Shown here one piece after another: positions 3,895 to 11,935 of a stretch of DNA of 64,000 nt; the first letter of the stretch is position 1; the number at the start of each line of letters is the position of its first letter. Below the pieces are notes generated by a model that saw only the letters and a program-made list of their open reading frames with translations, had not been told where the DNA came from and made no database searches. The DNA comes from Escherichia coli. GTDB lineage: Bacteria > Pseudomonadota > Gammaproteobacteria > Enterobacterales > Enterobacteriaceae. A program made the position numbers and the translations under genes. The DNA lies in the NCBI RefSeq assembly GCF_046105845.1, contig NZ_CP151004.1; one strand, 5' to 3'.

Positions 3895-4273
3895 TGTTGA
3901 ACTCCGTGTCAAAAGAAAACGGTCAATCCCATAAACGGCAGATTGAAAACAATGATGTTATATTTTTTGCAAGGCTATTTATGGTGCGGATGTCGTGTTT
4001 TTAATTGTAGGTGAGGTGATTTTTCATTAAAAAATATGCGCTTATGATTATTTTGTAAGAACACATTCATAATATTCATAATGCTCGTGAATAGTCTTAT
4101 AAATAATTCAATCGGGATGTTTTTATCTGCGTTACATTAATTTTTCGCAATAGTTAATTATTCCGTTAATTATGGTAATGATGAGGCACAAAGAGAAAAC
4201 CCTGCCATTTTCCCCTACTTTCAATCCTGTGATAGGATGTCACTGATGATGTTAATCACACTGACCTTACAGA

Positions 4274-5065
4274 ATGGGCCTTATGAACGCATTTGATTCG
4301 CAAACCGAAGATTCTTCACCTGCAATTGGTCGCAACTTGCGTAGCCGCCCGCTGGCGCGTAAAAAACTCTCCGAAATGGTGGAAGAAGAGCTGGAACAGA
4401 TGATCCGCCGTCGTGAATTTGGCGAAGGTGAACAATTACCGTCTGAACGCGAACTGATGGCGTTCTTTAACGTCGGGCGTCCTTCGGTGCGCGAAGCGCT
4501 GGCAGCGTTAAAACGCAAAGGTCTGGTGCAGATAAACAACGGCGAACGCGCTCGCGTCTCACGTCCTTCTGCGGACACCATCATCGGCGAGCTTTCCGGC
4601 ATGGCGAAAGATTTCCTTTCTCATCCTGGCGGGATTGCCCATTTCGAACAATTACGTCTGTTCTTTGAATCCAGCCTGGTGCGCTATGCGGCTGAACACG
4701 CCACCGATGAACAAATCGATTTGCTGGCAAAAGCACTGGAAATCAACAGTCAGTCGCTGGATAACAACGCGGCATTCATTCGCTCAGACGTTGATTTCCA
4801 CCGCGTTCTGGCGGAGATCCCCGGTAACCCAATCTTCATGGCGATCCACGTTGCCCTGCTCGACTGGCTGATCGCCGCACGTCCAACCGTGGCTGATCAG
4901 GCTCTGCACGAGCATAACAACGTTAGCTATCAACAGCATATTGCGATCGTTGACGCGATCCGGCGTCATGATCCTGACGAAGCCGATCGTGCGTTGCAAT
5001 CGCATCTCAACAGCGTCTCTGCTACCTGGCACGCCTTCGGTCAGACCACCAACAAAAAGAAATAA
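4274..5065 (+). CDS. nanR: GntR-family repressor of sialic acid catabolism
   Basis: 263-aa ORF matching NanR; divergent from dcuD, upstream of nanA. Confidence 0.93.
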
Positions 5066-5128
5066 TGCCACTTTAGTGAAGCAGATCGCATTATAAGCTT
5101 TCTGTATGGGGTGTTGCTTAATTGATCT

Positions 5129-5151
5129 GGTATAACAGGTATAAAGGTATA
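5129..5151 (+). promoter_or_regulatory. NanR operator: three direct GGTATA repeats in nanA promoter
   Basis: ggtataacaggtataaaggtata read directly about 40 nt upstream of nanA start; matches the known Nan box architecture. Confidence 0.85.
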
Positions 5152-5186
5152 TCGTTTATCAGACAAGCATCACTTCAGAGGTATTT

Positions 5187-6080
5187 ATGGCAACGAATTT
5201 ACGTGGCGTAATGGCTGCACTCCTGACTCCTTTTGATCAACAACAAGCACTGGATAAAGCGAGTCTGCGTCGCCTGGTTCAGTTCAATATTCAGCAGGGC
5301 ATTGACGGTTTATACGTGGGTGGTTCGACCGGCGAAGCCTTTGTACAAAGCCTTTCCGAGCGTGAACAGGTACTGGAAATCGTCGCCGAAGAGGCGAAAG
5401 GTAAGATTAAACTCATCGCCCACGTCGGTTGTGTCAGCACCGCCGAAAGCCAACAACTTGCGGCATCGGCTAAACGTTATGGCTTCGATGCCGTCTCCGC
5501 CGTCACGCCGTTCTACTATCCTTTCAGCTTTGAAGAACACTGCGATCACTATCGGGCAATTATTGATTCGGCGGATGGTTTGCCGATGGTGGTGTACAAC
5601 ATTCCTGCCCTGAGCGGGGTAAAACTAACCCTGGATCAGATCAACACCCTGGTTACGCTGCCTGGTGTCGGCGCGCTGAAACAGACCTCTGGCGATCTCT
5701 ATCAGATGGAACAGATCCGTCGTGAACATCCTGATCTGGTGCTCTATAACGGTTACGACGAAATCTTCGCCTCTGGTCTTCTGGCGGGCGCTGATGGTGG
5801 TATCGGTAGTACCTACAACATCATGGGCTGGCGTTATCAGGGGATTGTGAAGGCGCTGAAAGAAGGCGATATCCAGACCGCGCAGAAGCTGCAAACCGAA
5901 TGTAATAAAGTCATTGATTTACTGATCAAAACGGGCGTATTCCGCGGCCTGAAAACGGTCCTGCATTATATGGATGTCGTTTCTGTGCCGCTGTGCCGCA
6001 AACCGTTTGGACCGGTAGATGAAAAATATCTGCCAGAACTGAAGGCGTTGGCCCAGCAGTTGATGCAAGAGCGCGGGTGA
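5187..6080 (+). CDS. nanA: N-acetylneuraminate lyase
   Basis: 297-aa ORF matching NanA ([16 protein letters not shown]...). Confidence 0.95.
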
Positions 6081-6188: not shown

Positions 6189-7679
6189 ATGAGTACTACA
6201 ACCCAGAATATCCCGTGGTATCGCCATCTCAATCGTGCACAATGGCGGGCATTTTCCGCTGCCTGGTTGGGATATCTGCTTGACGGTTTTGATTTCGTTT
6301 TAATCGCCCTGGTACTCACCGAAGTACAAGGTGAATTCGGGCTGACGACGGTGCAGGCGGCAAGTCTGATCTCCGCAGCCTTTATCTCTCGCTGGTTCGG
6401 CGGCCTGATGCTCGGCGCTATGGGTGACCGCTACGGGCGTCGTCTGGCAATGGTCACCAGCATCGTTCTCTTCTCGGCCGGGACGCTGGCCTGCGGCTTT
6501 GCGCCAGGCTACATCACCATGTTTATCGCTCGTCTGGTCATCGGCATGGGGATGGCGGGTGAATACGGTTCCAGCGCCACCTATGTCATTGAAAGCTGGC
6601 CAAAACATCTGCGTAATAAAGCCAGTGGTTTTCTGATTTCCGGCTTCTCTGTGGGGGCCGTCGTTGCCGCTCAGGTCTATAGCCTGGTGGTTCCGGTCTG
6701 GGGCTGGCGTGCGCTGTTCTTTATCGGCATTTTGCCAATCATCTTTGCTCTCTGGCTGCGTAAAAACATCCCGGAAGCGGAAGACTGGAAAGAGAAACAT
6801 GCTGGTAAAGCACCAGTACGCACGATGGTAGATATTCTCTACCGTGGTGAACATCGCATTGCCAATATCGTAATGACACTGGCGGCGGCTACTGCGCTGT
6901 GGTTTTGCTTCGCCGGTAACCTGCAAAATGCCGCGATCGTCGCTGTTCTTGGGCTGTTATGCGCCGCAATCTTTATCAGCTTTATGGTGCAAAGTACGGG
7001 CAAACGCTGGCCAACGGGCGTAATGCTGATGGTGGTCGTGTTGTTTGCTTTCCTCTACTCATGGCCGATTCAGGCGCTGCTGCCAACGTATCTGAAAACC
7101 GATCTGGCTTATAACCCGCATACTGTCGCCAATGTGCTGTTCTTTAGTGGCTTTGGCGCGGCGGTGGGATGCTGCGTAGGTGGCTTCCTCGGTGACTGGC
7201 TGGGAACCCGCAAAGCGTACGTTTGTAGCCTGCTGGCCTCGCAGCTGCTGATTATTCCGGTATTTGCGATTGGCGGCGCAAACGTCTGGGTGCTCGGTCT
7301 GTTACTGTTCTTCCAGCAAATGCTTGGACAAGGGATCGCCGGGATCTTACCGAAACTGATTGGCGGTTATTTCGATACCGACCAGCGTGCAGCGGGCCTG
7401 GGCTTTACCTACAACGTCGGCGCATTGGGCGGTGCACTGGCCCCAATCATCGGCGCGTTGATCGCTCAACGTCTGGATCTGGGTACTGCGCTGGCATCGC
7501 TCTCGTTCAGTCTGACATTTGTGGTGATCCTGCTGATTGGTCTGGATATGCCTTCCCGCGTTCAGCGTTGGTTGCGCCCGGAAGCATTGCGTACTCATGA
7601 CGCTATCGACGGCAAACCATTTAGCGGTGCCGTGCCATTTGGCCGCGCCAAAAACGATTTAGTCAAAACCAAAAGTTAA
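6189..7679 (+). CDS. nanT: Sialic acid MFS transporter
   Basis: Track ORF 506 aa; conserved start [15 protein letters not shown] gives 496 aa; polytopic MFS protein. Confidence 0.93.
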
Positions 7680-7726: not shown

Positions 7727-8412
7727 ATGTCGTTACTTGCACAACTGGATCAAAAAATCGCTGCTAACGGTGGCCTGATTGTCTCCTGCCAGCCGGTTCC
7801 GGACAGCCCGCTCGATAAACCCGAAATCGTCGCCGCCATGGCATTAGCGGCAGAACAGGCGGGCGCGGTTGCCATTCGCATTGAAGGTGTGGCAAATCTG
7901 CAAGCCGCGCGTGCGGTGGTGAGCGTGCCAATTATCGGGATTGTGAAACGCGATCTGGAGGATTCTCCGGTACGCATCACGGCCTATATTGAAGATGTTG
8001 ATGCGCTGGCGCAGGCGGGCGCGGACATTATCGCCATTGACGGCACCGACCGCCCGCGTCCGGTGCCTGTTGAAACGTTGCTGGCACGTATTCACCATCA
8101 CGGTTTACTGGCGATGACCGACTGTTCCACGCCGGAAGACGGCCTGGCATGCCAAAAGCTGGGAGCCGAAATTATTGGCACTACGCTTTCTGGCTATACC
8201 ACGCCTGAAACGCCAGAAGAGCCGGATCTGGCGCTGGTGAAAACGTTGAGCGACGCCGGATGTCGAGTGATTGCCGAAGGGCGTTACAACACGCCTGCTC
8301 AGGCGGCGGATGCGATGCGCCACGGCGCGTGGGCGGTGACGGTCGGTTCTGCCATTACGCGTCTTGAACACATTTGTCAGTGGTACAACACAGCGATGAA
8401 AAAGGCGGTGCT

Positions 8413-8416
<4 letters not shown>
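7727..8416 (+). CDS. nanE: N-acetylmannosamine-6-phosphate 2-epimerase
   Basis: Track ORF 243 aa; start at [16 protein letters not shown] gives 229 aa. Confidence 0.92.
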
Positions 8417-9749
<1,333 letters not shown>

Positions 9750-9824: not shown

Positions 9825-10130
9825 TTACCTGACGTTGTATTCTTTTATGTTAACACCCTTGATACTGTATATACCTGTCCGCTTAATTCGCTTGCCCTTT
9901 TTATTCGTAATAGTTGCTGTAAGTGTACTGCAGCGAATGGAATGACGTTCATCAATCACCAGCCGAATTGCTTCTGAAGCATCTTCCACCTCTAGAAGGT
10001 CGTGAGTCTTATTTAAGCCGAATGGAACAAGGTGGAAGGCCGTTTTTCCAGATGATTTTCTGGTTATTTTTACTGGATACAACACATCACCACTTTTATG
10101 GATTAATTCAAGCTGTTCAATGTAAATCAT
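9825..10130 (-). CDS. Hypothetical protein, 101 aa, in AT-rich segment
   Basis: ORF with AGGAA Shine-Dalgarno 8 nt upstream of ATG; about 40% GC by eye; no recognised family. Confidence 0.4.
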   Translation of the reverse strand: MIYIEQLELIHKSGDVLYPVKITRKSSGKTAFHLVPFGLNKTHDLLEVEDASEAIRLVIDERHSIRCSTLTATITNKKGKRIKRTGIYSIKGVNIKEYNVR

Positions 10131-10217
10131 GGCAACTTTCCTTCGTTTATCTGCATGAATATATAAACCGAAAATAGGAGATGCAATACAAAAGCTGTGG
10201 AAATATCAAATAGCCTC

Positions 10218-10574
10218 TCAATTTGGCAGACAGCGTCTGCCAAATCTTTGCCGATGGGAATTCTGCAGAATTTCAACATGTTGATAAAAAAGGTAAAAAA
10301 GCTTCATTTGGCGTAAGTTTTTTGCAGAGACCCCACGTTTATACCGTCGACTTAAATCCTGCGATAACCGATCAATCAGCTGTGCAGCATAAGCCGCTCT
10401 TGCCTCGCCGCCTTGTTCAAATTCGACAATTCGTCGGCCAATTTCCCAGTATGTGGCGGTCATTAACGCGTTAACACTACGTACCGTTTCCGTCCGGGCG
10501 CTATCGACCAGGTGAATAATACCGTCGTGGATTTGCTGGTAGCCTGTTGAGGTTCTCTCTGAGAGCGATTCCAT
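10218..10574 (-). pseudogene. N-terminal fragment of DUF1016/YhcG-like (PDDEXK nuclease family) protein, truncated
   Basis: 118-aa ORF with TYWEIGRRIVEFEQ...NLRQMKLFYLFY resembling the N-terminal domain of DUF1016 proteins; full-length members about 340-375 aa; C-terminal nuclease domain absent. Confidence 0.5.
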
Positions 10575-10727
10575 TATCTGTCCCTTTATATGGCGCTGCG
10601 TTGAATAATGGAATCAGCTATACGCCGGGCATCTACCGGTAACAATCCAGATGAGCGTATTACATTGGTTTTCTTCACATTATGCGAGGCACCTTCCAGC
10701 GAGGTGTCACGTTGTGGTGAAGATAAA

Positions 10728-10765: not shown

Positions 10766-11935
10766 TCAGGCGGTTTCTCTTGCTGTCACTACGCCATTTT
10801 GCGCAGCCCACAGATTCACATCTTCCTTACGAATGGCGGCGGCCATCATGCCGGGGAATAAATCTGGGGTACAGGCAAAGGAGGGAATACCCATGGCGGC
10901 GAGTTTTCCTGCCAGTGACCGGTCGTAAAACGGCGCACCTTCATCGCTTAAGGCCAGCAGGGTAACCACCTGTACGCCGGACTGAATCAACTCACTGGCG
11001 CGTTGCAACAGATTGCGTTCCACCCCGCCTTCGTAGAGGTCGGAAATCAGCACCAGAATGGTATTGCGCGGATCGCGAATCAAAGACTGGCAGTAGCCCA
11101 CCGCGCGGTTGATGTCGGTGCCGCCACCCAGCTGTACGCCAAACAGCAGCTCTACCGGATCGTCGAGCTTCTCTGTCATATCAACGACTGCGGTGTCGAA
11201 AACCACCAGATGCGTTTTTACCGCCGGGAGCGATGCCATTACTGCGCCAAAAATACTGGAATAGACCACCGAGGAGGCCATCGACCCACTCTGGTCGATA
11301 CATAAAATGATCTCCTTTTGCGTGCGTTGAGACTTGCGCCCGTAGCCGATCAGCGTTTCAGGAACAATACTTTTATACTCTTCCTGCCAGTGGCGCAGGT
11401 TGGCGCGAATGGTGCGCTGCCAGTCAATTTCCGCGTGGCGCGGGCGACGATTACGTACCGCACGATTAAGAGCGCCGCTTACCGCGCTACGCATTGGCTC
11501 TTCAAGCTGTTTCATCAATTGCTCGACAACTTTACGCACCACAAGCCTGGCGGTTTCTTTGGTTTTGGCCGGAATTACGCCATTCAGCGACATCAGCGTG
11601 GAGACCAGATGAACATCAGGCTGGACGTTTGCCAGCATCTCTGGCTCCAGCAGCATACTGTGCAAATTAAGACGTTCAAAGGCGTCTTTTTGCATCACCT
11701 GAACCACAGAAGAAGGGAAATACTGGCGAATATCACCCAGCCAGCGAGCGACTTTGGGTGACGATCCACCCGTGCCGCCGCGTAATCCATGTTTACCGTC
11801 TGGCTGATAGAGCGCCGCCAGCGCGGCATCAATCGCGGACTCTCTGGCATCCAGCGCCACGTTACAGGCATTGTCGGCATCTTCTCCAAGGATCAGACGC
11901 CAGCGGCGCAGCCGTTCCATTTCGTTACTCGACAT
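10766..11935 (-). CDS. VWA-domain protein with MIDAS motif (CoxE-like)
   Basis: 389 aa; DxSxS motif in ILCIDQSGSMASS and downstream VLISDLYEGG; N-terminal RWRLILGE typical of CoxE-type VWA proteins; AGGGA SD upstream; 11-nt overlap with upstream gene. Confidence 0.8.
   Translation of the reverse strand: MSSNEMERLRRWRLILGEDADNACNVALDARESAIDAALAALYQPDGKHGLRGGTGGSSPKVARWLGDIRQYFPSSVVQVMQKDAFERLNLHSMLLEPEMLANVQPDVHLVSTLMSLNGVIPAKTKETARLVVRKVVEQLMKQLEEPMRSAVSGALNRAVRNRRPRHAEIDWQRTIRANLRHWQEEYKSIVPETLIGYGRKSQRTQKEIILCIDQSGSMASSVVYSSIFGAVMASLPAVKTHLVVFDTAVVDMTEKLDDPVELLFGVQLGGGTDINRAVGYCQSLIRDPRNTILVLISDLYEGGVERNLLQRASELIQSGVQVVTLLALSDEGAPFYDRSLAGKLAAMGIPSFACTPDLFPGMMAAAIRKEDVNLWAAQNGVVTARETA

Follow-up and report, generated by a model that had tools for sequence, protein, structure and literature searches.

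We found that the 23-bp element at 5129-5151 (plus strand) of the Escherichia coli DNA under study, a stretch of 64,000 nucleotides termed the window throughout, is very probably the operator at which NanR canonically controls the nanATEK-yhcH (nanQ) promoter of E. coli. The element (GGTATAACAGGTATAAAGGTATA) comprises three exact GGTATA repeats, read from the sequence at 5129-5134, 5138-5143 and 5146-5151 of the plus strand and separated by spacers of 3 nt (ACA) and 2 nt (AA); both the coordinates and the exactness of these direct repeats agree with what the first-pass annotation had recorded. The operator for NanR upstream of nanATEK-yhcH in K-12 was reportedly described by Kalivoda in 2003 and 2013 as a (GGTATA)3 ‘Nan box’. 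The site at 5129-5151 conforms to the sequence definition of the Nan box (PMC3658417), and a NanR operator before nanA is a textbook element that is already known.

The operator sits in the 121-bp gap between nanR and nanA, 64 bp past the stop codon of the former and 36 bp before the start codon of the latter. The upstream gene, nanR (4274..5065, plus strand), codes for a FadR-subfamily GntR repressor of 263 aa that is recognized by the NCBIfam NanR model NF003011 (408.9 bits; cutoff, 260). The operon downstream, likewise on the plus strand, opens with nanA (5187..6080; TIGR00683, 571.5 bits), whose product, N-acetylneuraminate lyase, is identical to that of K-12 at 297 of 297 residues. It is followed by nanT (6189..7679, with the annotated start at 6189; NF003024, 947.8 bits) for the sialic acid:H+ symporter (496 aa, 2 substitutions relative to K-12), nanE (7727..8416; NF002231, 338.8 bits) for the ManNAc-6-P 2-epimerase (229 aa, 1 substitution), nanK (8413..9288; NF047821, 510.3 bits) for N-acetylmannosamine kinase (291 aa, 9 substitutions and no stop codon) and, as the last gene, nanQ (yhcH; 9285..9749; NF040884, 234.7 bits) for N-acetylneuraminate anomerase (154 aa, 4 substitutions). 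The products of nanR and nanATEKQ all exceed the curated NCBIfam cutoffs over their full length, and every nan protein has the length of its K-12 counterpart, with 0-9 substitutions and free of internal stops. The gene order matches the annotation of both K-12 MG1655 and E. coli strain 7/2, and the segment 2763-9750 of the window, which reaches from within dcuD to nanQ, aligns collinearly to K-12 with zero gaps and 97.4% identity.

The first-pass annotation had called the repeats unmutated and had named the K-12 operator as the comparison to make; that comparison returned identical operators, with the 23-mer and the entire nanR-nanA intergenic region being those of MG1655. Over the window segment 5041-5200, which takes in the intergenic region and a few codons on each side, 160 of 160 positions agree with MG1655, whose site has been footprinted and tested by EMSA; the K-12 nanATEK-yhcH operator has the same 23-mer, the same 121-bp intergenic region and the same flanking genes in the same order. 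Set against the K-12 locus as a whole, the element itself shows no differences, each nan structural gene carries the 0-9 amino acid changes given above, and NanR is identical at 262 of 263 residues (99.6%), the sole change being T207A, with residues 1-206 unchanged. Residue 207 is absent from the listed DNA contacts (Ser33, Glu58, Arg59, Gly68, Arg69, Ser71, Arg73, Asn89 and Glu91) and from the listed Neu5Ac/Zn2+ ligand residues, and the ligand-contact residues (Arg128, Asn165, Asp172, His176, Arg203, His214, Asn215, Ser218, Gln221, His222 and His244) are all conserved. Because Ala also occupies position 207 in two Enterobacter NanR orthologues, the Ala207 of the window NanR is probably the commoner or the ancestral state. 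One could still envisage an intact operator with altered regulation, whereby T207A or a change in nanR expression would give an operon with some constitutive expression or with poor inducibility. The substitution does fall in the effector domain, near Arg203 and within or close to the alpha8-alpha9 loop region, which is mobile upon ligand binding, such that a subtle change in induction is possible; however, the occurrence of Ala207 in Enterobacter, the retention of all published contact residues and the collinearity of the dcuD-to-nanQ region with K-12, free of indels, make such an alteration very improbable. We instead favor the view that the nan operon is probably under NanR control, as the first-pass annotation proposed, which is supported at the sequence level by an operator identical to that of K-12, its canonical placement and the full-length nan genes.

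The published operators of the sialoregulon are three, namely those of nanA, nanX and nanC (PMC8012715, PMC3658417). The K-12 operator of nanX (yjhB; nanXY being yjhBC) is, like that of nanA, a 23-mer identical to the window site, and that of nanC (nanCMS), GGTATAACAGGTATAAAGGTGCA, differs from it by two mismatches in repeat 3. A preceding TTGATCT is common to all three sites, and their flanks diverge past ~35 bp; the nanXY and nanCMS sites belong to other loci, which are >1 Mb away in K-12 and outside the window. At a greater distance, the operators of FadR-type GntR regulators (e.g., FadR on its palindromic site, PDB 1HW2) are recognized as by NanR through the winged helix, whose alpha3 enters the major groove while its wing contacts the minor one. 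The two differ in architecture in that NanR binds direct repeats as three cooperative dimers, whereas the FadR type binds a single palindrome as one dimer (Horne 2021, PMC8012715).

Three NanR dimers have been shown to bind the K-12 (GGTATA)3 operator cooperatively by means of EMSA, ultracentrifugation and cryo-EM (Horne 2021, PMC8012715). The same work established that K-12 NanR binds a lone repeat poorly, that wider spacers abolish binding and that only one dimer is bound when NanR is deprived of residues 1-32; it further showed that N-acetylneuraminate releases NanR from the K-12 operator, with Neu5Ac and Zn2+ in the C-terminal domain resulting in 28-fold weaker DNA binding (PMC8012715). 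Sialic acid induces nanA up to ~1000-fold in K-12 (Vimr 2013, PMC3658417), and the nan operon is reported to be under activation by CRP as well as repression by NanR (PMC12562284, PMC10334811). We infer that the strain under study would behave as K-12 does, with the stoichiometry, cooperativity and Neu5Ac induction being those reported in the literature for the identical K-12 sequence. [quoted passage not shown] The resulting complex is predicted to occlude the promoter and the start region, such that nanA, nanT, nanE, nanK and nanQ would be kept off. Incoming N-acetylneuraminate, together with Zn2+, would bind the C-terminal FCD domain and lock NanR in a form with ~28-fold lower affinity for DNA, upon which the operator would be vacated and transcription would proceed, aided by cAMP-CRP when glucose is absent.

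A scan of 4900-5300 for sigma-70 consensus promoters returned none at the threshold, as expected for an activator-dependent promoter, and the -10 element and start site could consequently be proposed by eye only. A possible extended -10 element so read, TGGTATAAC, spans 5128..5136 on the plus strand and overlaps repeat 1; it would set the start near 5143/5144, within the operator. Such a start would in turn place a candidate cAMP-CRP site, AGTGAAGCAGATCGCA (5075..5090, unstranded; two mismatches to TGTGA-N6-TCACA), ~61 bp upstream, which would be close to the class I position of about -61.5. Matches to the CRP consensus with two mismatches show no enrichment in the window (16 versus 25 expected), with that at 5075-5090 being at chance level, and we retain it as a candidate because of its position and the literature on CRP activation. 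Another CRP-like sequence with two mismatches, GATGATGTTAATCACA at 4245-4260, stops 14 bp short of the nanR start codon and is likewise at chance level.

We take the operator to be a repressor site that would block RNA polymerase at the nanA promoter. The RefSeq name of the K-12 protein, ‘DNA-binding transcriptional dual regulator’, could be read to mean that NanR acts at the nanA site mainly as an activator or as a dual regulator rather than as a repressor. The published result in K-12 is that deletion of nanR raises nanA expression. The site lies <60 bp from the nanA start codon and overlaps the likely core promoter, a placement that fits a repressor, and the literature uniformly reports that NanR represses nanATEK-yhcH by way of this operator (PMC8012715, PMC3658417, PMC12562284, PMC10334811); against these, a chiefly activating or dual role for NanR here appears very unlikely.

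The repressor site is close to invariant across the species. A 71-bp query centered on the operator matched 5408 of the 5426 complete E. coli genomes, 4726 of them identically. A shorter query of 33 bp (5124-5156), which requires an exact 28-base word to seed a match, was found in 5381 of the 5426, at ≥99% identity in 5367; its ~1140 surplus match places reflect a second copy elsewhere in many genomes, as in K-12, where it lies upstream of nanX. Among five variant genomes that were sampled, none has a damaged repeat; three have A instead of G at the position that corresponds to window 5108, and one has an extra T directly 3' of the operator. Within the window, a single GGTATA hexamer is unremarkable (18 occurrences versus 12.7 +/- 3.7 expected), in contrast to the spaced triple GGTATANNNGGTATANNGGTATA, which, with up to three mismatches allowed, has a single match in the 64 kb versus an expectation of 0.01 derived from dinucleotide-preserving shuffles. 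That the repeats arose by chance as an A/T-rich promoter stretch resembling a -10 and do not serve as an operator, a notion encouraged by the TATA(A/T)-like hexamer within each repeat and by the lack of enrichment of the lone GGTATA, can be rejected as next to impossible given the rarity of the spaced triple, its invariance in ~99% of E. coli genomes and its recurrence at two other NanR-regulated promoters and in Enterobacter; it is also refuted by the published EMSA, AUC and cryo-EM data, which show NanR binding to identical DNA (PMC8012715).

Two kinds of variation around the operator are of separate note. The polymorphism at window 5108, which is 21 bp upstream of the operator, is G in the window and in K-12 and A in three of the four sampled genomes with a single difference; the stretch in which it falls would hold a -35 element. 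E. coli strain 113 from cattle (NZ_CP028680.1; locus L002, 125-156), the fifth of the sampled variants and one of only two genomes falling at 80-90% identity in the 71-bp search, displays a 9-bp duplication, GGTATAACA, that results in four GGTATA repeats.

Directly 3' of nanQ, the window departs from K-12 with a five-gene cluster on the minus strand (10766-18206), which is situated between nanQ and gltD and stands in place of the K-12 yhcA-F fimbrial genes and gltF. Its members code for a VWA_CoxE protein (10766-11935), a DUF5682 protein (11925-14174), an AAA_5/MoxR-like ATPase (14192-15400), a DUF5691 protein (15283-16908) and a SWIM zinc finger protein (16884-18206), all on the minus strand. 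Of the 5426 complete E. coli genomes, only 33 cover at least 80% of the window segment 9750-17750, the best of them at 97.5% identity, and a search of the five-gene cluster with the PADLOC defense models gave no match. Between nanQ and the cluster is a homolog of yhcG (DUF1016/PDDEXK; 9825-10629) that is seemingly broken, with short open reading frames at 9825-10130 and 10218-10574 on the minus strand and with only 10268-10629 aligning to K-12 yhcG, at 89% identity. In strain 7/2, an intact PDDEXK gene is found at the place of yhcG and is directly followed by gltD.

To look beyond E. coli, we scanned one genome per species with the pattern GGTATAN{2,3}GGTATAN{2,3}GGTATA, which returned at least 120 loci; these do not represent a taxonomic distribution of the Nan box, and the informative ones are only those in which Nan proteins or FCD regulators are encoded as well. 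Among the matches listed, most are unrelated 8- or 9-bp tandem arrays from Bacteroidota, Nitrospirae and other metagenome-assembled genomes (MAGs), and in two Enterobacter species the exact 23-mer has nanR (83% amino acid identity) on one side and nanA (90%) on the other. The GGTATAnn motif occurs as an 8-bp tandem on many separate contigs of single MAGs (loci L020-L025, L055-L060, L071-L081 and L116-L122; e.g., Bacteroidota CSMAG_2914, Bacteroidales SMBSF39, Bacteroidetes WY2.bin67 and Nitrospirae S139_46), which suggests that in these it is a dispersed short-repeat element unrelated to NanR. Long 9-bp arrays of GGTATAACT or GGTATAGAA in many copies are seen in Pseudoalteromonas sp. TB64 (locus L007, 9135-9212) and Shewanella sp. 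KT0246 (locus L016, 431-481), and tblastn searches within these two loci recovered no NanR or Nan gene.

Several triple repeats adjoin genes for more distant regulators. Among the matches listed, two Hungatella MAGs and Enterocloster lavalensis share a conserved GGTATACCGGTATACTGGTATA (loci L054, 6003-6024; L062, 6788-6809; and L013, 3602-3623), directly upstream of orthologous GntR/FCD regulators that are mutually 73-94% identical and distant from NanR. Genes of the DHDPS and YhcH families are close to the Hungatella sites. In locus L054, TTGACC and a TATAAT-like element flank this sequence in a divergent promoter, and the neighboring genes are cyclase-like, ketopantoate-reductase-like and of the DHDPS and YhcH families. 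The Synergistales bacterium MS502-76 features GGTATACTGGTATACTGGTATA (locus L029, 8520-8541) in the divergent region between the gene for a NanR-like FCD regulator, which has 35% identity to NanR and keeps the equivalents of Arg59, Arg69 and Arg73, and those for a zinc alcohol dehydrogenase and TRAP DctP, with a TRAP-transporter operon adjoining the regulator gene. A 5.2-kb contig binned to Sphingomonadales (locus L070) has GGTATAGTGGTATAACAGGTATA at 1040-1062, ~230 bp upstream of a regulator 53% identical to NanR, and another single GGTATA at 1230-1235; nan catabolic genes were found nowhere on this short contig. GTATAC is palindromic, and sites of GntR-family regulators often contain GT..AC. 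We regard the triple repeats beside distant NanR-like regulators of other phyla as leads rather than findings. They raise the tentative and rather doubtful prospect, drawn from these related loci, that operators of at least three direct GGTATA(C) repeats with 8-9 bp spacing beside a gene for a FadR/FCD-type regulator may extend past the enterobacterial sialoregulon, and that cooperative binding of tandem repeats by multiple dimers may be wider in the subfamily.

The intact operator says nothing specific about the present strain because it is shared by ~99% of complete E. coli genomes. Sialic-acid catabolism is a host-derived nutrient pathway that is relevant to gut colonization. The significance of the element at 5129-5151 is that it gives the correct annotation of this part of the window, with the strain carrying the standard switch for its sialic-acid catabolism genes.
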